Below, one piece after another: positions 4,067 through 50,777 of a DNA stretch of 64,000 nt. The position numbers were made by a program, and so were the translations under genes. This DNA is from Candidatus Zambryskibacteria bacterium RIFCSPHIGHO2_01_FULL_46_25 (lineage in GTDB: Bacteria; Patescibacteriota; Minisyncoccia; Phycocordibacterales; Zambryskibacteraceae), in the NCBI GenBank assembly GCA_001825155.1, contig MHVH01000005.1, positions 70,413 to 134,412 on the forward strand, given 5' to 3'. Each line of letters starts with the position of its first letter. The first letter of the stretch is position 1. The notes below the pieces were generated by a model. That model was not told where the DNA came from, searched no databases, and saw only the letters and a program-made list of their open reading frames with translations.

Positions 4067-4597
4067 CTAGGAAGCCTCTTCCTTTGGGAGCTGTGGCTCC
4101 CCGGCGTACACTTTCCAGTCTCTTTTCTTGAGGGTAAGGTGAAGCACATCCTTCACCTTGAGCGCCTCGTCGTAGAGAGAGTAGAAGTTTTCTTGGTATC
4201 CCTGGAAATTACGCCTCAACCTCTCGGAGGTTTCCTCGTACGTCTCATGACGACGGTAAACGTAATCAGAATGCCGTCGGTGGAATGCCTGATGTCCGAG
4301 CTGTTGAAGACTCATCTGCAGCTCCGCCGCGTCCCTTACCTCCCGGGCGTACTCATGGAGCTTCGTCTCGGCACCATCTCTCACGGGCGCGGTCAGATCT
4401 AGCTTGTACCGTACAAACTCAAGAGCTTGCCGGTACTTCCGGCTCAGAAGGTAGTACTTGGCAGCGACATCTCCGGTCGCCACGAAGAGCCCGAACAAGG
4501 TGGACACAATGACCAGCGCCGTAAGGGTGAACCAGGAGCTGAGAAAGTACATTGTTGCCAGAGTAACCAACACGAATTGCAGCAGAAAATTCCTCAT
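4067..4597 (-). CDS. Hypothetical membrane protein (2 N-terminal TM plus a charged cytoplasmic domain)
   Basis: ORF with a hydrophobic N-terminus, followed by a terminator. No family recognised. Confidence 0.45.
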   Translation of the reverse strand: MRNFLLQFVLVTLATMYFLSSWFTLTALVIVSTLFGLFVATGDVAAKYYLLSRKYRQALEFVRYKLDLTAPVRDGAETKLHEYAREVRDAAELQMSLQQLGHQAFHRRHSDYVYRRHETYEETSERLRRNFQGYQENFYSLYDEALKVKDVLHLTLKKRDWKVYAGEPQLPKEEAS

Positions 4598-6171: not shown

Positions 6172-6207
6172 TGCTCCTCCTTGTGGAGCGAAAAACACTC
6201 TCTTCCT

Positions 6208-6236
6208 ATCTTAGCACAATATGAATATCTTGTCAA
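6208..6236 (-). promoter_or_regulatory. Extended -10 promoter, TTGACAAGAT-N13-TGCTAAGAT family copy 1
   Basis: On the minus strand: TTGACA, 17 bp spacer ending in TGC, then TAAGAT. 22 of 29 positions match the copies at ~18170-18198 and ~18581-18609. Confidence 0.5.
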
Positions 6237-6249
6237 TCCCTGCGGGATT

Positions 6250-6313
6250 GCTTCAGGTTCGCTCGGGCTCTGTGTAAGCAAGCTCCCACATTCCCTCGCT
6301 GCCTGAAGTCAAG
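6250..6313. repeat. 64-nt conserved intergenic element, copy A, immediately 3' of gyrB
   Basis: GCTTCAGGTTCGCTCGGGCTCTGTGTAAGCAAGCTCCCACATTCCCTCGCTGCCTGAAGTCAAG matches 29836..29899 at 61 of 64 positions. Its ends form a CTTCAGG/CCTGAAG inverted repeat. Confidence 0.6.
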
Positions 6314-6321
6314 CACAAGAA

Positions 6322-8289
6322 CTACACATCCAAAACGGCCTTCTTGGCATTTGATTGGATGAAAGATTTGCGGCTGGGCACGTCGGAGCCCATGAGGATG
6401 TCGAAGATGCGGTCCGCTTCGCGGGCGTCCTCCACCTTGACCTGCTTTAGAATCCTTTTTGCCGGGTCCATGGTCGTCTCCCAGAGTTCGTCCGAATTCA
6501 TTTCTCCCAAGCCTTTGTATCGCTGAATATCCCCTGCCTCTTCTTTCCCGACAATCTTTATTTTCTCCTCATCGGAGTAAGCGAAGTACGAATTCTTGCC
6601 CATCTTGATTTTATATAGCGGTGGCTGGGCGATGTAAACATGTCCGGCGTCAATAAGTGGACGGAAGAAGCGGTAAAGCAGGGTAAGAAGAAGGGTGCGG
6701 ATATGCGCGCCGTCAACATCGGCATCAGTGGCAATAATTATCTTGTGGTATCGGAGTTTCGAAATATCAAATGTGTCCCCTATCGCCGTGCCGAAAGCGA
6801 CGACCAGATTTTTGATTTGCTCGGAAGCGAGCATCTTGTCGAGGCGGGCGCGTTCTATATTTAAAATTTTCCCGCGCAAAGGAAGGATGGCTTGTATGCG
6901 ACGATCCCGACCCATCTTGGCCGTGCCACCGGCGGAATCTCCCTCGACAATAAATATTTCCGACTCCTCCGCCGAGCGGCTCTGGCAATCCGCAAGCTTG
7001 CCGGGGAGCGTCATGCCCTCGAGCGCGCCTTTGCGAAGCACGGAGTCCTTGGCGGCTTTGGCGGCCTTCCTCGCTTTCAAGGCTAGAACCACTTTGTTGA
7101 TGATAGATTTCGCGTCGTCCGGATTCTCCTCGAGGAACTGGCTAAAGGCTTCGCCGAAGACGGTCGTAACCATAGCCTGAGCCTCAACGGAACCAAGCTT
7201 CGCCTTGGTCTGACCTTCGAACTGGATTTCGCGCAGTTTGACCGAGAGCACGGCCGTGAGTCCTTCCAGCACGTCGTCGCCGGTGAAATTATCTTCCTTC
7301 TCGCCTACGAGATTATTCTTCCTCGCATAAGTATTAAGAGTGCGGGTAAGAGCCGTTTTGAAGCCGGTAACGTGCGTGCCACCTTCGGCGGTATAGATGT
7401 TATTGGCGAAGGGCAAGAGACGCGATGAGATATCCTCAACGTACTGCAAGGCGACCTCGACCACTTCGTAATCATTGCCGTTCGCCTTCTTTTCAACGTA
7501 GAAAATATTGCGATGCATCGGCTTCAAGTGCTCGTTCTCGAAGCGCACGAGCGAGACGAGCCCGCCCTCGAAATAGAATGAGGTTGAAGGAATGTCGAGA
7601 CCCAATTCTCTTATATAGAAAACATTTTCGTCATCCACTTTCGCTAGATTGCGGGCATCCAGCACCGAGATTCTCAAACCGCGCACGAGGTAGGCCTGCT
7701 GGCGCATGTGAGAGACAATAGTGTCGTAGTTGAAGTTGATGTCCGGGAAGATCTCTTTGTCCGGTTCGAAAGTGATGATGGTACCGGTCTTGTCCGACTT
7801 AGCAATTTTCTTCACAGCACTTTTCTTCTTGCCCTTGCTGTATTCCTGGATATATACGCCGCCATCACGATGCACAACAGCCTTGCAATAAACAGAAAGA
7901 GCGTTGACCACCGAGGCACCGACGCCGTGGAGTCCGCCGGAAATCTTGTAGCCATCGCCGCCGAATTTGCCCCCGGCGTGGAGCGTCGTCATGATAGTCT
8001 CAAGCGCGGAAACCTTCGTCTGTTTGTGAATGTCTACCGGAATGCCTCGACCGTTGTCTACCACACGAACTCTGTTGTTGGGAAGAAGAACGATTTCAAT
8101 GTCATTGGCGAAGCCGCCCATAGCCTCGTCGCGGGAGTTGTCGAAGATTTCCGTAACAAGGTGCTGGAGGCCGTCGGGACCGGTCGTGCCGATGTACATG
8201 CCGGGGCGCTTCCTGACTGGTTCCAAACCTTCTAGGACGGTAATAGATTCAGCGCTATAGCTGCTTGTTTTAGACTTCTTTTCTGCCAT
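6322..8289 (-). CDS. gyrB: DNA gyrase subunit B
   Basis: GHKL ATPase, Toprim and C-terminal domains are all recognisable (e.g. EGDSAGG, PLRGKILN). The start is trimmed to MAEKKSKTSSY...; the track ORF extends upstream to 8364 through a non-homologous leader. Confidence 0.9.
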   Translation of the reverse strand: MAEKKSKTSSYSAESITVLEGLEPVRKRPGMYIGTTGPDGLQHLVTEIFDNSRDEAMGGFANDIEIVLLPNNRVRVVDNGRGIPVDIHKQTKVSALETIMTTLHAGGKFGGDGYKISGGLHGVGASVVNALSVYCKAVVHRDGGVYIQEYSKGKKKSAVKKIAKSDKTGTIITFEPDKEIFPDINFNYDTIVSHMRQQAYLVRGLRISVLDARNLAKVDDENVFYIRELGLDIPSTSFYFEGGLVSLVRFENEHLKPMHRNIFYVEKKANGNDYEVVEVALQYVEDISSRLLPFANNIYTAEGGTHVTGFKTALTRTLNTYARKNNLVGEKEDNFTGDDVLEGLTAVLSVKLREIQFEGQTKAKLGSVEAQAMVTTVFGEAFSQFLEENPDDAKSIINKVVLALKARKAAKAAKDSVLRKGALEGMTLPGKLADCQSRSAEESEIFIVEGDSAGGTAKMGRDRRIQAILPLRGKILNIERARLDKMLASEQIKNLVVAFGTAIGDTFDISKLRYHKIIIATDADVDGAHIRTLLLTLLYRFFRPLIDAGHVYIAQPPLYKIKMGKNSYFAYSDEEKIKIVGKEEAGDIQRYKGLGEMNSDELWETTMDPAKRILKQVKVEDAREADRIFDILMGSDVPSRKSFIQSNAKKAVLDV

Positions 8290-37044: not shown

Positions 37045-37683
37045 CTATTTCCGCTTCCACTCGGTTAGATTGGAGGCTTTAATTTCAATCCCTTCTGCCT
37101 TGCGCAGGTTTCTAACTTGTTTGAGTGTCAGAATTTTGAAGTGCTTTGAGATATCTAGCTCATGAGCCAGCGTTGCCAAATTTTCTTCTGTTGTAATCCA
37201 CCCTGTGCCAAGTTTAGATAGGTCAAATGGTTTGGAGTATTGTCTCAAAGTCTTTTTGCCGCTGTTGAGGAAATATTCATGGAAATAAGACATGGCCAGT
37301 TCGCGGATAGATTTGTAAACAGGGTCGCGGTAACGCAACACAGGATGGTTTGTTTTAGAAATAGCTCCCCAACATCCCCTCTCATTGAAAAGGGCCACTA
37401 CGTGGTCGAAGTCGGGGCGAACTGTCTTGAGGTCGAGAAGTAGCGGCAGCCGCCCCTGTATCCAGAGGGCGGCCGCCGCCAAAAGTGCCCCCTCGAAGCA
37501 ATGCGCCCGTTTGTTTTGTAATGTAAGCTTGGGTGAAGAGTGCGTCTGTCCCCCCTCCTCGAAGTTGAATGGCGTCGCATTCAAGAAATCCTGAATCTTC
37601 GCCGGAGTGGAAAGTTTCTTGAGTTTGGACCACTCACCTTGTTTCAATCCGGAAGCATGGAAATTAAGCTTCGAGACTTTCAT
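37045..37683 (-). CDS. Hypothetical protein with a conserved Cys (KRAHCFEGALLAAAAL); possibly a papain-like/NlpC-LRAT-type fold
   Basis: ORF only. The fold assignment is speculative. Confidence 0.35.
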   Translation of the reverse strand: MKVSKLNFHASGLKQGEWSKLKKLSTPAKIQDFLNATPFNFEEGGQTHSSPKLTLQNKRAHCFEGALLAAAALWIQGRLPLLLDLKTVRPDFDHVVALFNERGCWGAISKTNHPVLRYRDPVYKSIRELAMSYFHEYFLNSGKKTLRQYSKPFDLSKLGTGWITTEENLATLAHELDISKHFKILTLKQVRNLRKAEGIEIKASNLTEWKRK

Positions 37684-41498: not shown

Positions 41499-41518
41499 AC
41501 TTACATTATAATCAACTA

Positions 41519-41555
41519 CATAATAAAAACGCTATAGCGTTTTTATTATGTATAT
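41519..41555. repeat. Palindromic 37-bp element flanking PaaX-like gene 1 (5' side); candidate operator
   Basis: CATAATAAAAACGC-TATA-GCGTTTTTATTATG is an almost perfect palindrome. It lies ~20 bp upstream of the ATG. Confidence 0.55.
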
Positions 41556-45427: not shown

Positions 45428-45940
45428 ATGATTGCAACAATTTTTCCACTTCTTGGCATCATGGCATTCCTTCTCCTTTGGATCCACTCGATGATGGGGG
45501 TCTTCGAGCCATGGCTAAGACCTCGGATGCCTTTCGACGCCTTCGTCCACTACACGGCGCTCATCATCCTCTTTTGCATTGTCCTCCATCCCCTTCTGCT
45601 CCTCATACTCATCGAGTTCAATTTCGCACTACTCTTCTCCGGCAATCCACTGGCAATATCTCTGGGTGTTGCCGGCTTCCTCCTCCTCATCACATACGAC
45701 ATTGGCAAGGCGCTCAAACGTAGGGAATTCTTCACCCGACACTGGAACACCATATTGCTCATAAGCACAATCGGATTTATCCTTACTTTCTTTCACTCCC
45801 TCATGCTCGGGAGCCACTTGCAGTCCGGCCCCTTGCGCGCGCTCTGGATTTTTTTCGGCACGACCGCCATCCTCGCCACCATTTATACGTATGGGGTGAA
45901 GAGGTTAAGATATAATCAAAACAATGAAAAAAGATTTTGA
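45428..45940 (+). CDS. Hypothetical polytopic membrane protein
   Basis: ORF with ~5 TM. Confidence 0.4.
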   Translation: MIATIFPLLGIMAFLLLWIHSMMGVFEPWLRPRMPFDAFVHYTALIILFCIVLHPLLLLILIEFNFALLFSGNPLAISLGVAGFLLLITYDIGKALKRREFFTRHWNTILLISTIGFILTFFHSLMLGSHLQSGPLRALWIFFGTTAILATIYTYGVKRLRYNQNNEKRF

Positions 45941-46337
45941 TAATTGGAATAGGCGGAAGAAGCAGCTCCACAATAGCGAAGTGATAATCGATGCTCATCC
46001 TCGTGAAGTTTGGTGGTGCTCATTCGGTGTAAACATCGGAGCTGAGACTGATGGCGGAGACAAAAATTTTGAAAGGCCTTGTTTGATTCTAAAAGTTTAT
46101 AACCGAGAAACCATGTTGGCCCTGCCTATTACTGGCAAAGCTAAGCCAGATGATTTTCATTACAAAATTATAGTTACTAGGAAAAAGCCTAACTCTGAAG
46201 AACTAGAGAAAAGAGATGCCTGGGTAAAGCTTACTCAGTCACGAGTGATCAGTAATAAAAGATTGCTTCGTAAAGTAGATATGATTCCTGAAGCGGAGTT
46301 TATTGAAATTAGAAACAGATTTCAAAAGTTCGTGTAA
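45924..46337 (+). CDS. MazF/PemK-like toxin-fold protein (orphan; no antitoxin recognised)
   Basis: REVWWCSFGVNIGAETDGG...RPCLIL resembles the PemK/MazF N-terminal strands. AT-rich. Confidence 0.4.
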   Translation: MKKDFDNWNRRKKQLHNSEVIIDAHPREVWWCSFGVNIGAETDGGDKNFERPCLILKVYNRETMLALPITGKAKPDDFHYKIIVTRKKPNSEELEKRDAWVKLTQSRVISNKRLLRKVDMIPEAEFIEIRNRFQKFV

Positions 46338-47407: not shown

Positions 47408-47620
47408 CTAAGCGTGATCGGCTGTCGTGGGCTTCTTCGGGATGATGAGGATGGCGAAGATGTATGCCACTACACCCGGCACGAAGCCGGTGAAGACGAC
47501 TATAAGGAGCCACAGGAGGCGCAGAAGCACGGAGTCAATGTCGAAGTATTCCCCCAATCCTCCGCAAATCCCCGCGAACACCTTGTCGGTATTGCTCCTA
47601 TAAAGCTTTTTGTGTGCCAT
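47408..47620 (-). CDS. PspC-domain membrane protein
   Basis: VFAGICGGLGEYFDID plus a TM. Confidence 0.7.
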   Translation of the reverse strand: MAHKKLYRSNTDKVFAGICGGLGEYFDIDSVLLRLLWLLIVVFTGFVPGVVAYIFAILIIPKKPTTADHA

Positions 47621-47654: not shown

Positions 47655-47740
47655 GGCTACATTATACGACCAAGTTAGAACCTGTTTCTAGCAGAACAAT
47701 TGATCGCGCGCCCTGCGGGCGTGCTCGCCTCGGGCTGTTA
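47655..47740. repeat. Left arm of a ~85-bp inverted repeat pair (partner at ~50430..50517)
   Basis: The core GGCTACATTATACGACCAAGTTAGAACCT is near-identical in reverse orientation at ~50488..50516. An imperfect extension includes a GCGCGCC...GGCGCGC hairpin. The arm carries an outward-facing TATAAT. Confidence 0.55.
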
Positions 47741-48027
47741 CCGTTAGGGCTATGAGCGCCTAAACGCCTAGGTTCAGGCATTTCTAGCGAACGGCTCAAA
47801 ATTACCATTATTGACCAGAACGGCACTTTCGGCCTCGGTAGGGATTTCTGGGGCCACAGGTGGCACAGCGATAGGTTCAGAAGTGCTTGATGGAAGTGAT
47901 GCATCAAGGGTAGGCTCTTGGTGGCTTGGTGGAGTAGATATTTCTTCGGGAATGGGGTTTTGAGGTTCGTCAGGCATAAAAAATATTTTAACAGACTTTA
48001 ATTATCCCCAAGTTTATCGTTTAATCA

Positions 48028-48056
48028 TTGACTTTTCATTGATTCACCGCTATGAT
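48028..48056 (+). promoter_or_regulatory. Sigma70-type promoter (TTGACT, 17 bp spacer, TATGAT)
   Basis: A consensus-like promoter with no downstream plus-strand CDS. Confidence 0.45.
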
Positions 48057-48062
48057 GGCTAT

Positions 48063-48152
48063 GGTGCTTGTGAGGGCTTCGGCTCTCCCGCGGTTAAGTA
48101 TAAACTGCAGCCAAGTACCATCAAAGCACATCGCGCAAGCGGTGTTTTTTGA
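48063..48152 (+). ncRNA. Candidate ~90-nt small RNA
   Basis: It starts after the promoter above. It contains a GGGC-UUCG-GCUC tetraloop hairpin. Its 5' and 3' segments pair (GGUGCUUG / CAAAGCAC, CCAUCAAA / UUUGAUGG). It ends in a T6 run. Confidence 0.3.
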
Positions 48153-48175
48153 TGGTAAATTTATTTGATAATAAC

Positions 48176-48664
48176 TCAGTCATTTTCAGGGTTTCCGCTA
48201 TACATAACTCTCTCATTGGTGTTCTTATTAGTTCCCCAGAATGGTATTAGACTCCAAAAGAATTTCTCACCTCCCTCCACCTCTTTGACTATAACTTTCA
48301 GTCTAATTTTTGAACCGCGCGATTCCATGACGGCGATAAATTCATAGTAAGTGGTAACTTTCATCACTTTTTCCCAACGACTATTTATCTTAACTCTTTC
48401 AATCTTTTTCGTAGTCCATATTCCTTGTAGAGTTTTAGATTGACTTATAATTTCTGGAGCTAGTTTTATATGTCTAAATCTTGCAAACTGATCGTTTGAA
48501 ACACGAGTGTTATTCCAACTTTTAAATACTAGGTGGTCCCATCCTTTTACATTAAAATGTACGTCACCTGCAAAATAAGGACAACGAACTTTACCAATTT
48601 TCTTATAAAAATCTTCAGCCAGATTTTTTACCTCATTAAATTTCTCAACTGTAAATTCCATCAT
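48176..48664 (-). CDS. Hypothetical protein (162 aa), AT-rich
   Basis: ORF only. Confidence 0.4.
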   Translation of the reverse strand: MMEFTVEKFNEVKNLAEDFYKKIGKVRCPYFAGDVHFNVKGWDHLVFKSWNNTRVSNDQFARFRHIKLAPEIISQSKTLQGIWTTKKIERVKINSRWEKVMKVTTYYEFIAVMESRGSKIRLKVIVKEVEGGEKFFWSLIPFWGTNKNTNERVMYSGNPEND

Positions 48665-48733
48665 ACATCATAAATTATATTACTTTGTTAGTTTCTTTCA
48701 TAATCCTGTCAGTTTCAACAAGAGCGACAATAA

Positions 48734-50017
48734 TTATAAACTACAACTCTTCGTCGAAGTTCCACCCTTCTCATTACGGAAGATACAAAGAAATTGATTA
48801 ACATGAGCATTATAAGAACTCATGAAATCTATTTGGTCAGGAGATAAACCGCGATTCTCTTCCATAATTTTTACTACCTCCTTTAACTGAAAGAGTATTG
48901 AATCTAAAACCATTAAGGATTTAGAGAAATTTGGATTAGTGGCTACAAGTGAAATGTGTTCGGTATAAATATCCTCCATCTCTTTCAATGCTTCTTGCCA
49001 TGATGTCAGTACTTCCGACTTATATTTCGGTAGCTTATCCTTATATGCTTGAACTTTCTCATCATAATCATCCATAAATTGCCTCTCTTCAATAGAAAGG
49101 TCGTTGTTTTTCTCCATTGCCACAAGTATGGATTTTAATTGAAAGTGTATGGAATCTAAGGCTGAAATTGATTCGGTAAAATCAGTCCCTCTAACTTTAA
49201 GTGATGCTTGCGATGTCTCCACATCTTTTAGTGCGACTTGCCACGAGGCCAATACCTCAGGCGTATATTTTGGTAATTTCTCATTTAAATAAACACCGAC
49301 AGAAATGAATAATATTACTATTAATACGAAAACACTCATTTCTTTTTTAGGTGTTTTTGTATCTTTCTTGAAAACAATGTAAATCAAAACTAATGCCAGA
49401 ACCCACGTAATAGAAAAACTAAAAATAGTTCCCCAATCATCCCAATGTATTACTGATAGGTTGAAAATAGCATGAAAAACAATTGCCAAAGTAAGTGCAA
49501 GAGTTGTAATAACGACACGCTTTCTTACAGATTTGTAAAATGAGAATGCTAAGGCGACTCCGATAATGCTACTTGCAACTACGTGTAAGAGACTTGCCCC
49601 AATAAAGCGTAAATTACCAGTGATAACGCTTCGAGTGGTATCTTCTCCAATAAGCGGTCCGACGACATAGAGAACATTTTCTAAAGCGGCAAAACCAAGT
49701 GCCGCTACTATCATATAAATTAGTGTCTTTGCCCTATCAATTTTAAGGAACTTAATAGCACATAAGACTACAGACAACTTAATAACTTCCTCCACAGTAG
49801 CCCATAAGAAAAGGACGATTGGTGGTGAGCCTGGGATAAATATGCTAAATGCTTTCTGAAATGGGAGAGCGAATAATACTGCAATAGCTCCACCCACAAA
49901 GACAAATATTGCGGACTTATTATCAAGACTCTGTTTTCTCGTCCAAAACCATACCCATATCAGTATGGAAATTGAACTTGCTACGACTGCGATGGAAATT
50001 GGATAAGCTAACTGCAT
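48734..50017 (-). CDS. PrsW-family intramembrane protease-like protein with two ~75-aa tandem extracytoplasmic repeats
   Basis: EExxK (VEEVIKL), FAALEN and HVVxS/HAIFN motifs sit in TM helices. The C-terminus has duplicated LPKYxxEVLxSWQxALK...LDSIxFQLK units. Confidence 0.5.
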   Translation of the reverse strand: MQLAYPISIAVVASSISILIWVWFWTRKQSLDNKSAIFVFVGGAIAVLFALPFQKAFSIFIPGSPPIVLFLWATVEEVIKLSVVLCAIKFLKIDRAKTLIYMIVAALGFAALENVLYVVGPLIGEDTTRSVITGNLRFIGASLLHVVASSIIGVALAFSFYKSVRKRVVITTLALTLAIVFHAIFNLSVIHWDDWGTIFSFSITWVLALVLIYIVFKKDTKTPKKEMSVFVLIVILFISVGVYLNEKLPKYTPEVLASWQVALKDVETSQASLKVRGTDFTESISALDSIHFQLKSILVAMEKNNDLSIEERQFMDDYDEKVQAYKDKLPKYKSEVLTSWQEALKEMEDIYTEHISLVATNPNFSKSLMVLDSILFQLKEVVKIMEENRGLSPDQIDFMSSYNAHVNQFLCIFRNEKGGTSTKSCSL

Positions 50018-50086
50018 TTTGTATTATTTAAAAACCAAAGTATCTTTTTATAAAATAATATTTAAATCAGTTACTCACTTTTCTTT

Positions 50087-50338
50087 TTACCAACCAAGCT
50101 TATTTTTTAGGCAATCAATACAATTTATATTTTCTTTAACCACTGATTTGATATTATTCTCATCGAGCATTATTCCACAGAGAGCCACACCACTCTTTTG
50201 AGGCACGTTTTGATTGTTAAGTGGTCCCCCTTTATGTTTAATGCGTTCCCAATGGGTTATTTTTTTCATTTTATTGGACTGGTATTTATTAAAATTATTA
50301 TCACAATTGTTCACCCTATTATACAATGAATTTTTCAC
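50087..50338 (-). CDS. Hypothetical small protein (83 aa), AT-rich
   Basis: ORF only. Confidence 0.3.
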   Translation of the reverse strand: MKNSLYNRVNNCDNNFNKYQSNKMKKITHWERIKHKGGPLNNQNVPQKSGVALCGIMLDENNIKSVVKENINCIDCLKNKLGW

Positions 50339-50429
50339 CTTCGCCCCTTTCCGCTCATACCACTCAAAAAAGTCTTATCACCGCGAAAATTAAAATAGTA
50401 TGATAAGCGGAAAGGGGCGAGGGTTCGCC

Positions 50430-50517
50430 GAGCGAAGCGAGGCGTTAGCGCGCCGAAGGCGCGCGGTTAATGGTTCTGCTGGAAATAGGTTCTAACTTGG
50501 TCGTATAATGTAGCCCG
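50430..50517. repeat. Right arm of the inverted repeat pair
   Basis: See 47655..47740. It lies ~95 bp from the 3' end of tRNA-Gln. Confidence 0.55.
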
Positions 50518-50611
50518 AATAAAACTCACATCATTTTCAGAGAATTTTTCTCGCGCGGCGCGGAGCGCCGCGCGCCAGAATTTTAGTCCTGACGAAGTAA
50601 GTCACATTCGG

Positions 50612-50682
50612 GCTGCCGGACTTGGACTCGAACCAAGATACTCGCCTCCAGAGGGCGATGTCCTACCATTAGACGATCCGGC
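50612..50682 (-). tRNA. tRNA-Gln (anticodon CTG)
   Basis: Minus strand TGCCGGA-TC-GTCT-AATGGTA-GGAC-A-TCGCC-CTCTGGA-GGCGA-GTAT-CTTGG-TTCGAGT-CCAAG-TCCGGCA-G, with a U1-A72 pair as in bacterial tRNA-Gln. Confidence 0.8.
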
Positions 50683-50777
50683 AATACGGGCTCAGATTAC
50701 ATTAAAAATCGGTTGTTTTCAATACATAGATTAAGAAAAGGGCCGTCGCTACGGCCCCTTTCGGGAATTCTTTTGAT

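Follow-up and report, generated by a model that had tools for sequence, protein, structure and literature searches.

A 2.8-kb inverted-repeat segment beside tRNA-Gln in a Zambryskibacteria genome as the likely remnant of a large serine recombinase island

Large serine recombinases (LSRs) serve a range of islands and prophages, among them phiC31, Bxb1, A118, SPbeta (SprA), SCCmec (CcrAB), Tn4451 (TnpX), and XisF. We analyzed 64,000 nt of DNA from Candidatus Zambryskibacteria bacterium RIFCSPHIGHO2_01_FULL_46_25 (the window; coordinates refer to it unless a related locus, designated by an L number, is named), in which a 2.8-kb segment bounded by inverted repeats lies next to a tRNA-Gln(CTG) gene. 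Judging from what the repeats encode and from the layout of related loci, this segment is very likely the cargo arc of a decayed, LSR-moved integrative island at the 3′ end of that tRNA. Its family would be a large, seemingly undescribed set of islands in ultra-small groundwater bacteria. Like the known LSR elements, the family has the Resolvase, Recombinase, and zinc-ribbon architecture, a recombinase gene at the island end, accessory cargo, and attachment sites (attP × attB) with a short common core. Unlike them, it targets the 3′ ends of tRNA genes, carries an extra inverted copy of its attachment site (p.a, as defined below) and with it two nested pairs of inverted repeats, and places the crossover inside the recombinase open reading frame (ORF), so that integration would swap the last 11–17 residues of the protein. 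Its sequence relationship to the known systems is only distant, and the window copy has no recombinase. Full-text literature searches found nothing on this double inverted-repeat LSR architecture, and the window apparently holds a decayed member of an undescribed variant of LSR islands.

Other systems share single traits with it. In SSV1-type archaeal integrases, the int gene itself contains attP and is partitioned on integration into a tRNA gene. An attachment site in integrase coding sequence, a tRNA target, and an ORF altered by integration are common to both; SSV1-type enzymes, however, are tyrosine recombinases of archaeal viruses whose gene is split into two large parts, whereas the present enzyme is a bacterial serine recombinase that would exchange only a short C-terminal tail. 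The yeast 2-micron Flp/FRT system, the G segment of phage Mu (Gin), and the C segment of P1 (Cin) are isomerizing systems made of a recombinase and inverted repeats, and in Mu and P1, inversion exchanges one C-terminal coding end for another. Here too, site-bearing inverted repeats divide the element into arcs, one of them with the recombinase. In contrast to those systems, the present one is known from its sequence layout, has a large serine integrase in the place of Flp or a small invertase, is integrated beside a tRNA, and has alternative C termini that belong to the recombinase itself. All four likenesses are best taken as resemblances, not membership. Islands with tyrosine integrases also insert at tRNA 3′ ends, have variable and often defense-related cargo, and leave successive scars (as at L023), but the recombinase family differs, and the present islands have a 15-nt core in place of a duplicated tRNA 3′ half as well as internal inverted repeats.

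Inverted repeats and the coding content of the arms

An earlier note on this DNA, made from the sequence alone, had reported inverted repeats bracketing a low-GC segment about 95 bp from tRNA-Gln, and in these points it was right. The arms (47655–47732 and 50438–50515) form an inverted repeat of 78 nt with 83% complementarity and 2705 nt between them. Their outermost 28–29 nt are identical and are found at those two sites only in the window, where shuffled sequence gave an expected number of matches to the arm core of 0. In the arm-to-arm alignment, the likeness ends at the outer edges and fades ∼80 nt inward. GC content falls to 31–39% at ∼48200–50400, against 45–52% in the flanks; the low-GC block spans only the genes for an 83-aa protein, a PrsW-family protease, and an LPD3-like protein, and 47733–48175 is at 44–47%. 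The right arm lies 94 nt from tRNA-Gln(CTG). Between the two, the note had placed a perfect GC palindrome of 25 bp; the element at 50552–50574, CGCGCGGCGC-GGA-GCGCCGCGCG, is 23 nt long with a 10-bp stem and a 3-nt loop and is therefore a hairpin rather than such a palindrome. Each arm also has an outward-facing promoter-like match (TAGAAA/TGGAAA-18-TATAAT, 10/12 positions). All genes are on the minus strand: PspC (47408–47620), the Pro-rich, 162-aa, PrsW, and 83-aa frames, and, past the tRNA, a 73-aa Cys-rich ORF and FtsX/FtsE. One exact protein match pointed to Parcubacteria GW2011_GWA1_47_10 as the host. The features of the region are as follows, with the basis of each in parentheses.

47655–47732, plus strand: left arm, a decayed LSR tail module, then QNN, a stop codon, and a GC hairpin (arm alignment, translation)
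47733–47800, plus strand: conserved spacer, "seg" (80–91% matches in L032, L037, L039, L045, L049, and L054)
47774–47977, minus strand: truncated Pro-rich gene, a 67-aa ORF (homology to the 186-aa gene of L045)
48028–48155, plus strand: small-RNA candidate (promoter-like match, terminator stem, fold)
48176–48664, minus strand: 162-aa LPD3-like protein, low-GC cargo (borderline LPD3 match)
48734–50017, minus strand: 427-aa PrsW-family intramembrane protease, low-GC cargo (Pfam)
50087–50338, minus strand: 83-aa ORF, function unassigned, low-GC cargo (ORF call)
50337–50437, minus strand: hairpin module past the recombinase stop codon (folding, conservation in relatives)
50438–50515, minus strand: right arm, the LSR tail module TLYDQVRTYFQQNH with its stop codon and the first hairpin (translation, comparison with relatives)
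50516–50576, minus strand: recombinase 3′ remnant contiguous with the right arm, encoding AALRAAREKFSENDVSFIRA (translation)
50552–50609, plus strand: second, opposite recombinase 3′ remnant, encoding AARSAARQNFSPDEVSHIRA (translation)
50610–50684, minus strand: tRNA-Gln(CTG), its 3′ end the proposed integration target (tRNA detection)

In the outside-to-inside direction, each arm consists of the 3′ end of an LSR gene and hairpins after it. The right arm and its outer flank translate in one frame as AALRAAREKFSENDVSFIRA running directly into TLYDQVRTYFQQNH, with the stop codon at 50467–50469 and GC hairpins after it. The left arm translates to ATLYDQVRTCF (47656–47691) up to a premature TAG at 47689–47691 and is therefore a decayed copy of the same tail module. 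The outward TATAAT of the arms is the reverse complement of the codons ACA-TTA-TAC (Thr-Leu-Tyr). When arms were aligned across relatives, the variants differed by synonymous or stop-to-stop changes (CAG/CAA, AAC/AAT, TAA/TGA), a pattern that fits coding constraint. A tblastn search with the intact 497-aa LSR of the variant locus L003 (Resolvase, Recombinase, and Zn_ribbon_recom domains; PHROG integrase family match, 1.9e-74) matched the whole 64 kb only at 50512–50634 and 50546–50686. The two remnants meet at the hairpin 50552–50574, which codes both ways (minus strand, AALRAAR; plus strand, RAARSAAR) and is conserved in nearly all LSR 3′ ends of this clade; many assemblies of the same population break there, with contig ends at 50514–50572. 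From 50552, the plus strand encodes ...SPDEVSHIRA and then AGLGLEPRYSPPEGDVLPLDDPAI, running across tRNA-Gln(CTG) in antisense. The arms are therefore the C-terminal coding end and terminator hairpins of an LSR gene, i.e., the P′ half of attP.

Public collections were searched with a 20-nt arm core. It occurs in 8 stretches of species-representative Parcubacteria genomes, at one to two copies per genome, and in 31 metagenome stretches, so the check for further copies that the note had asked for speaks against a repetitive extragenic palindrome scattered through the genome. Across aligned arm copies, a conserved stretch with the same GC hairpin usually precedes the arm on its outer side. Three matches in the viral collection proved to be coincidences inside a phage gene encoding ...STLYDQVRTLKLK, and the LSR query found no relatives in that collection. 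Rfam returned only tRNAs over the region and ten related loci. We also considered the arm as a degenerate tRNA-Gln fragment and rejected this; arm and antisense tRNA have only short words in common (GGGCT.C, GACCAAG), which fits two half-sites read by one protein, not common descent. Inspection by eye for dyad symmetry around the crossover gave nothing convincing.

Recombinases, tRNA targets, and layout of related islands

In the mechanism that we propose, the crossover would fall inside the recombinase's own reading frame, 11–17 codons before the stop codon, and attP would therefore be made of two parts, p and a. Part p would be the penultimate ∼35–50 LSR codons, including the GC hairpin that encodes AALRAAR, and part a the last codons (xLYxxxRTxF... 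up to the stop) with the terminator hairpins. Integration would leave p fused to the tRNA 3′ end in antisense and a fused to the DNA that lies downstream of this gene. Intact relatives have a second, inverted p.a copy; their two copies of a form the inverted repeats around the cargo, and their two copies of p bound the recombinase arc. The free form would be a circle in which two inverted attP copies split the LSR arc from the cargo arc, and integration through one of them would give the layout observed.

The recombinase belongs to a family of >7,286 proteins at E<1e-40. Its nearest solved structures are those of SPbeta SprA/YokA and the A118 integrase (PDB matches at E 1e-8 to 1e-9); against the NCBIfam models for Ccr and XisF, it scores far below the cut-offs. 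Among the 120 best homologs, 79 have tails of the antisense tRNA T-arm/acceptor-stem type (..GFEPR.., ..GFEPTTNSLTGSCSTN..), 7 have arm-type tails (TLYDQVRTFF, RLYDETRTYF, QVYHLARTHF, and LVYDFARTYF), and the other 34 have neither pattern or are truncated. In at least 12 loci, an intact LSR gene runs into the 3′ end of tRNA-Gln in antisense; over the related Parcubacteria loci as a whole, the genes entered in this way are those for tRNA-Gln, tRNA-Asn, or tRNA-Phe. L034 is a clean minimal insertion, with tRNA-Gln(CTG), an antisense LSR 3′ remnant, a small cargo, a reversed arm, and directly thereafter the tRNA's own terminator. The 15-nt direct repeat GCAGCCCGAATAAAA stands at both of its junctions and therefore places the crossover within TTTTATTCGGGCT(G/A)C. 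One arm and the 808 nt next to it are 99.9% identical in two contigs, L042, where they meet an LSR 3′ end, and L044, where they meet a terminator-type flank; subject to the usual assembly caveats, this is how the attP and attL forms of one element would look.

Several tRNA arrangements were seen beside these elements. L038 (1241–1440, minus strand) has an intact tRNA-Gln(TTG) and, after it, another tRNA-Gln-like copy, which contains a ∼60-nt GC-rich D-loop insertion and is fused at the T-arm to arm sequence, 8 nt deeper than the usual junction. L023 has partial tRNA-Gln fragments as direct repeats (6182–6720), and in L021 two tRNA-Gln(CTG) genes (2125–2198 and 6366–6441) flank a methylase-centered island that is probably a restriction-modification system; in both cases, the pattern resembles the scars left when one tRNA receives several insertions in turn. 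Elsewhere, the recombinase arc itself contains tRNA genes, placed after the LSR start and before the inverted tail fragment: two tRNA-Arg in L035 (2742–2892) and tRNA-Arg and tRNA-Ala in L068 (1246–1606).

The relatives repeat one layout: downstream gene / a – cargo arc – (p.a, inverted) – LSR arc – p / tRNA. In the loci found via the arm, the intact LSR does not join the neighboring arm and points away from it, toward the tRNA, while a copy of the LSR's own last ∼37–55 codons abuts the arm; the LSR 3′ end and this tail fragment form inverted repeats of 73–112 nt with 96–99% identity. Taken over L025, L027, L031, L035, L054, L064, L065, L066, and L067, the p inverted repeats that flank the LSR arc measure 73–158 nt and are 96–100% identical; that of L053, cut by a contig end, is shorter (segments of 44–55 nt, 95–100%). 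Arm inverted repeats of 161–216 nt and 93–100% identity bound cargo arcs of 3–6 kb in L020 (202 nt, 100%, around 4.2 kb), L054 (202 nt, 93%, around 5.9 kb), L064, and L066. As a guard against selection bias, five distant homologs (57–76% identity) were picked by protein similarity alone.

L064: tRNA-Asn; p repeat 96 nt, 96%; arm repeat 161 nt, 98%, around a 3-kb cargo
L066: tRNA-Phe; p repeat 90 nt, 100%; arm repeat 216 nt, 95%, around a 4.3-kb cargo with a reverse transcriptase among its genes
L065: no tRNA detected; p repeat 158 nt, 100%; no arm repeat found in the region examined
L067: tRNA-Asn; p repeat 113 nt, 100%; no arm repeat found in the region examined
L068: tRNA-Asn; p repeat weak, 33 nt; no arm repeat found in the region examined

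On this comparison of contigs, members with different target tRNAs share the two-pair inverted-repeat layout. The arms of L064 and L066 are unrelated to the window arm in nucleotide sequence, yet they end in the same tail motif, HLYEFARTYFTLNS and GLYELARTHFMQNTTP, each followed by a stop codon. The motif xLYxxxRTxF thus recurs in distant members (57–59% identical; tRNA-Asn and tRNA-Phe targets) as HLYEFARTYF and GLYELARTHF, and there is no promoter-like match inside the L064 and L066 arms. It is the peptide, not the nucleotide sequence, that is conserved in the arms.

The cargo differs from one relative to the next. Among the related islands it includes an AlwI-type endonuclease with two D12 methylases, another methylase-centered cluster that is probably a restriction-modification system (ORF translations only), an MmeI-type enzyme accompanied by HNH and LexA-like genes, a GNAT gene together with one for an 838-aa protein, a helix-turn-helix regulator of the XRE family plus a small second gene, an operon for a multicopper oxidase, and a reverse transcriptase. 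The last of these (RVT_1) lies at 4218–8019 of L066 with small neighboring genes. L067 (1–9998) has genes for a type IV secretion system coupling protein and a relaxase, and LexA-like and methylase genes, beside the same recombinase type; these could belong to a conjugative or mobilizable element in Patescibacteria. Genomic islands of Patescibacteria are described as carrying restriction-modification systems and other accessory genes (PMC12455944), and the main text of that paper contains none of the words integrase, recombinase, and tRNA.

Set against this layout, the window retains the cargo arc and both arms; its two p copies have collapsed into the one hairpin that they share, and no LSR arc lies between them. 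The left arm abuts DNA upstream of PspC and therefore reads as an attL-type junction. The right arm with the 50516–50576 remnant looks like an intact attP-like P.P′ unit, and the plus-strand remnant 50552–50609 runs into the antisense tRNA (AGLGLEPRYSPPEGDVLPLDDPAI) and therefore reads as an attR-type junction. The 64 kb hold no LSR gene, only the two C-terminal remnants back to back at the hairpin; an intact gene is present in L003 and at least 12 related loci, and the window copy is therefore a decayed derivative rather than an autonomous member. Further signs of decay are the 83% identity of the arms (93–100% in LSR-bearing elements), the premature stop codon of the left a copy, which has also lost its hairpin module, and a truncated regulator gene. 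This copy would be an immobilized fossil with PrsW, the LPD3-like gene, the 83-aa ORF, and the small-RNA candidate. The hairpin is self-complementary, and its two inverted copies are therefore also direct repeats, which makes loss or exchange of an arc at the hairpin plausible. We infer that this exact copy arrived by LSR integration and lost its LSR arc through recombination at the hairpin, and the near-perfect repeat identity of the intact relatives presumably reflects ongoing exchange.

A broader proposal, which we put forward tentatively and consider possible rather than probable, is that these are widespread two-arc LSR elements with two inverted attP copies in which the recombinase or homologous exchange flips the LSR and cargo arcs. 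A flipped LSR arc would switch the recombinase C terminus between the native tail (xLYxxxRTxF) and an antisense-tRNA tail. If this were true, the tail switch would be a built-in control of recombinase activity or direction, and arc flipping would let LSR arcs and cargo arcs reassort between elements. A crossover inside the integrase reading frame combined with an inverted attP duplicate may be a new way of regulating a serine integrase. More generally, the locus leads to a concrete mechanism and a recognizable sequence signature for a large share of the islands in candidate phyla radiation bacteria, and the elements supply many natural recombinase/site pairs, with sites readable from the gene 3′ end and the tRNA, and are thereby of practical interest for serine-integrase tools. 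For the window itself, the gain is more modest: its odd inverted repeats are explained as remnants and its cargo as horizontally acquired genes.

Population variants and rival explanations

Outside the right arm, contigs of the window's own population that are 99.9% identical on the cargo/PspC side continue in at least four ways: as in the window; into an intact LSR arc with a 329-aa gene and tRNA-Gln(TTG) (L003 and 7 further similar places); into another LSR-fragment allele (L004, L013); and into a different gene start that abuts the arm (L006, L015). Together with the variable cargo of relatives, this bears out the note's tRNA-linked accessory islet of mobile origin. In L003, the intact LSR arc and tRNA-Gln(TTG) stand exactly where the window has the hairpin alone, and the switch between foreign and window sequence lies between the p part and the inner arm, at or beside the proposed crossover. 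The ∼62 shared nt would be too short for a k-mer chimera if MEGAHIT was run at k=141, as the contig names suggest. In all contigs that carry the window PrsW or PspC and cross the left arm (∼20 assemblies), the cargo has one orientation, and there is therefore no evidence that the 2.8-kb segment flips. L007 has window-type cargo, 100% identical over 2.3 kb, within another organism's flank. We set it aside as proof of recent horizontal transfer and inversion because it is a singleton, both switch points are in shared repeats, and L016 from the same sample starts exactly at one switch; it may be an assembly chimera. In a separate place, inside a 212-aa gene (37045–37683), contigs from at least three assemblies of the window population end at ∼37445–37485, which suggests that strains also differ in structure at this second site, 13 kb from the island.

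Some observations weigh against a decayed LSR island or limit it. Homologs of the CYTH gene yielded no empty site in which tRNA-Gln is followed directly by PspC; relatives with 85–88% identical CYTH proteins are not syntenic and therefore give no presence/absence evidence. The tRNA-side junction is typical (GCAGCCC/GAAT...), but the PspC-side junction reads GTAGCC/AAGT, with a common core of only G.AGCC, so the left junction may be secondary or rearranged. The p remnants of the window are ∼55–60% alike in nucleotides (by eye), far below the p repeats of intact elements, so that an intact LSR arc is unlikely to have been deleted in one simple, recent step; the joining at the hairpin of remnants from two different elements is equally possible. 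Several of the comparisons were made on short-read metagenome contigs, in which repeats of 100–300 nt can mislead assembly, L007 above all.

One reading in the note was an islet resembling a transposon or a miniature inverted-repeat transposable element (MITE), which would be nonautonomous, with outward promoters in its terminal repeats. Such an element would indeed be a short segment bounded by inverted repeats and devoid of a mobility gene, as are MITEs and nonautonomous transposons derived from insertion sequences; the repeats are real and statistically nonrandom, each arm has its outward sigma-70-like match, and a gene usually starts 10–40 nt from the host-side arm and reads outward (PspC; L006, L020, L039, L045, L064, and L066). 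However, neither the segment nor the rest of the window holds a transposase, and the domain search of the cargo gave none. There is no target-site duplication, the outer flanks CTGAAACTTG (left) and CGAATAAAAC (right) sharing no direct repeat, and a sequence present at one to two copies per genome, two of them in the window, is not multicopy. The arms are in-frame LSR tail and hairpins linked to LSR and tRNA genes, and the peptide is kept in relatives whose arms have no promoter match. The outward neighbors can be accounted for more simply, since the gene that follows a tRNA usually runs in the same direction as that tRNA. The promoter matches that the note described do exist, but as a reason for the arms they are not supported, being Thr-Leu-Tyr codons reversed and absent from distant arms. 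We consider a transposon origin very improbable. We attach just as little credence to the idea that the arms are a duplicated promoter/operator or structured RNA regulating PspC and a short tRNA-side transcript, with no bearing on mobility. The left-arm TATAAT does lie 35–40 nt upstream of the PspC start codon, the right-arm one faces a hairpin ∼45 nt off, and the arms have GC hairpins; but Rfam has no match at the arms, PspC has its own TATAAT immediately upstream of its ATG, and the arm sequence, which reads as LSR coding sequence with synonymous variation, sits beside LSR genes, tRNA genes, and unrelated cargo in many lineages.

Somewhat less improbable is an active, phase-variable cassette in which a recombinase acting in trans flips the cargo between the arms, a possibility also raised by the note. 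The recombinase and inverted-repeat design is conserved, the 93–100% identical inverted repeats of intact relatives suggest ongoing exchange, an intact LSR arc is present in the co-occurring variant L003, and cargo orientation differs relative to the LSR between L031 and L054 and relative to a common flank between L007 and L045. Those differences, however, involve different species or the possibly chimeric singleton L007, and in relatives' contigs, repeats longer than the assembly k-mer make orientation ambiguous. For the window copy, arms of only 78 nt and 83% identity, the missing LSR, and the single orientation relative to PspC in all population contigs crossing the left arm make active inversion unlikely, though intact relatives could be invertible.

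Cargo genes and neighboring features

The PrsW-like protease with two tandem repeats that the note had recognized was confirmed by Pfam (3.4e-19), and its two C-terminal repeats are 45% identical (E=8e-22). The 162-aa protein has a borderline match to LPD3 (26.4 bits, with a cut-off of 27), and the 83-aa ORF would be 60 aa when begun at an internal ATG, as in some gene callers. PADLOC and PHROGs gave no convincing family for the three proteins. We identify their genes as horizontally acquired cargo. The hairpin module at 50337–50437 comprises two short GC hairpins and a long stem pairing 50337–50358 with 50403–50424; it is kept in relatives, where the variable cargo starts directly after it.

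What had been taken for a Pro-rich mini-ORF is a truncated gene: it corresponds to the 5′ part of a 186-aa gene that relatives have in intact form and that carries a C-terminal winged helix-turn-helix in L045. Homology of the 67-aa frame to the L045 gene is confined to 47801–47977; ∼740 nt are deleted at 47800/47801, over which the L045 gene runs on to its winged-helix C terminus. The spacer 47733–47800 sits, in relatives, between the arm/hairpin module and the 3′ end of this gene.

The small-RNA candidate of the note held up. It has a promoter-like match, TTGACT-17-TATGAT, at 48028–48056, a predicted transcript at ∼48063–48155 with a fold z-score of −4.8, and a terminator stem at 48128–48145 that is the only terminator-like hit in the region. 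From the −35 box through the terminator, it differs from L045 and L049 at 2–3 positions, although the neighboring genes differ (LPD3 gene, ∼87% in nucleotides; Pro-rich protein, ∼61%). Its core had no match in the viral collection, and it was found only where the LPD3-like gene occurs.

Two features lie outside the island. A MazF/PemK-type toxin gene (45924–46337), 1.3 kb from the island, overlaps by 17 nt a 170-aa partner of no known family that is upstream on the same strand. At 41517–41552, a perfect 36-nt AT-rich intergenic palindrome, ACATAATAAAAACGCTATAGCGTTTTTATTATGT, resembles a bidirectional terminator.

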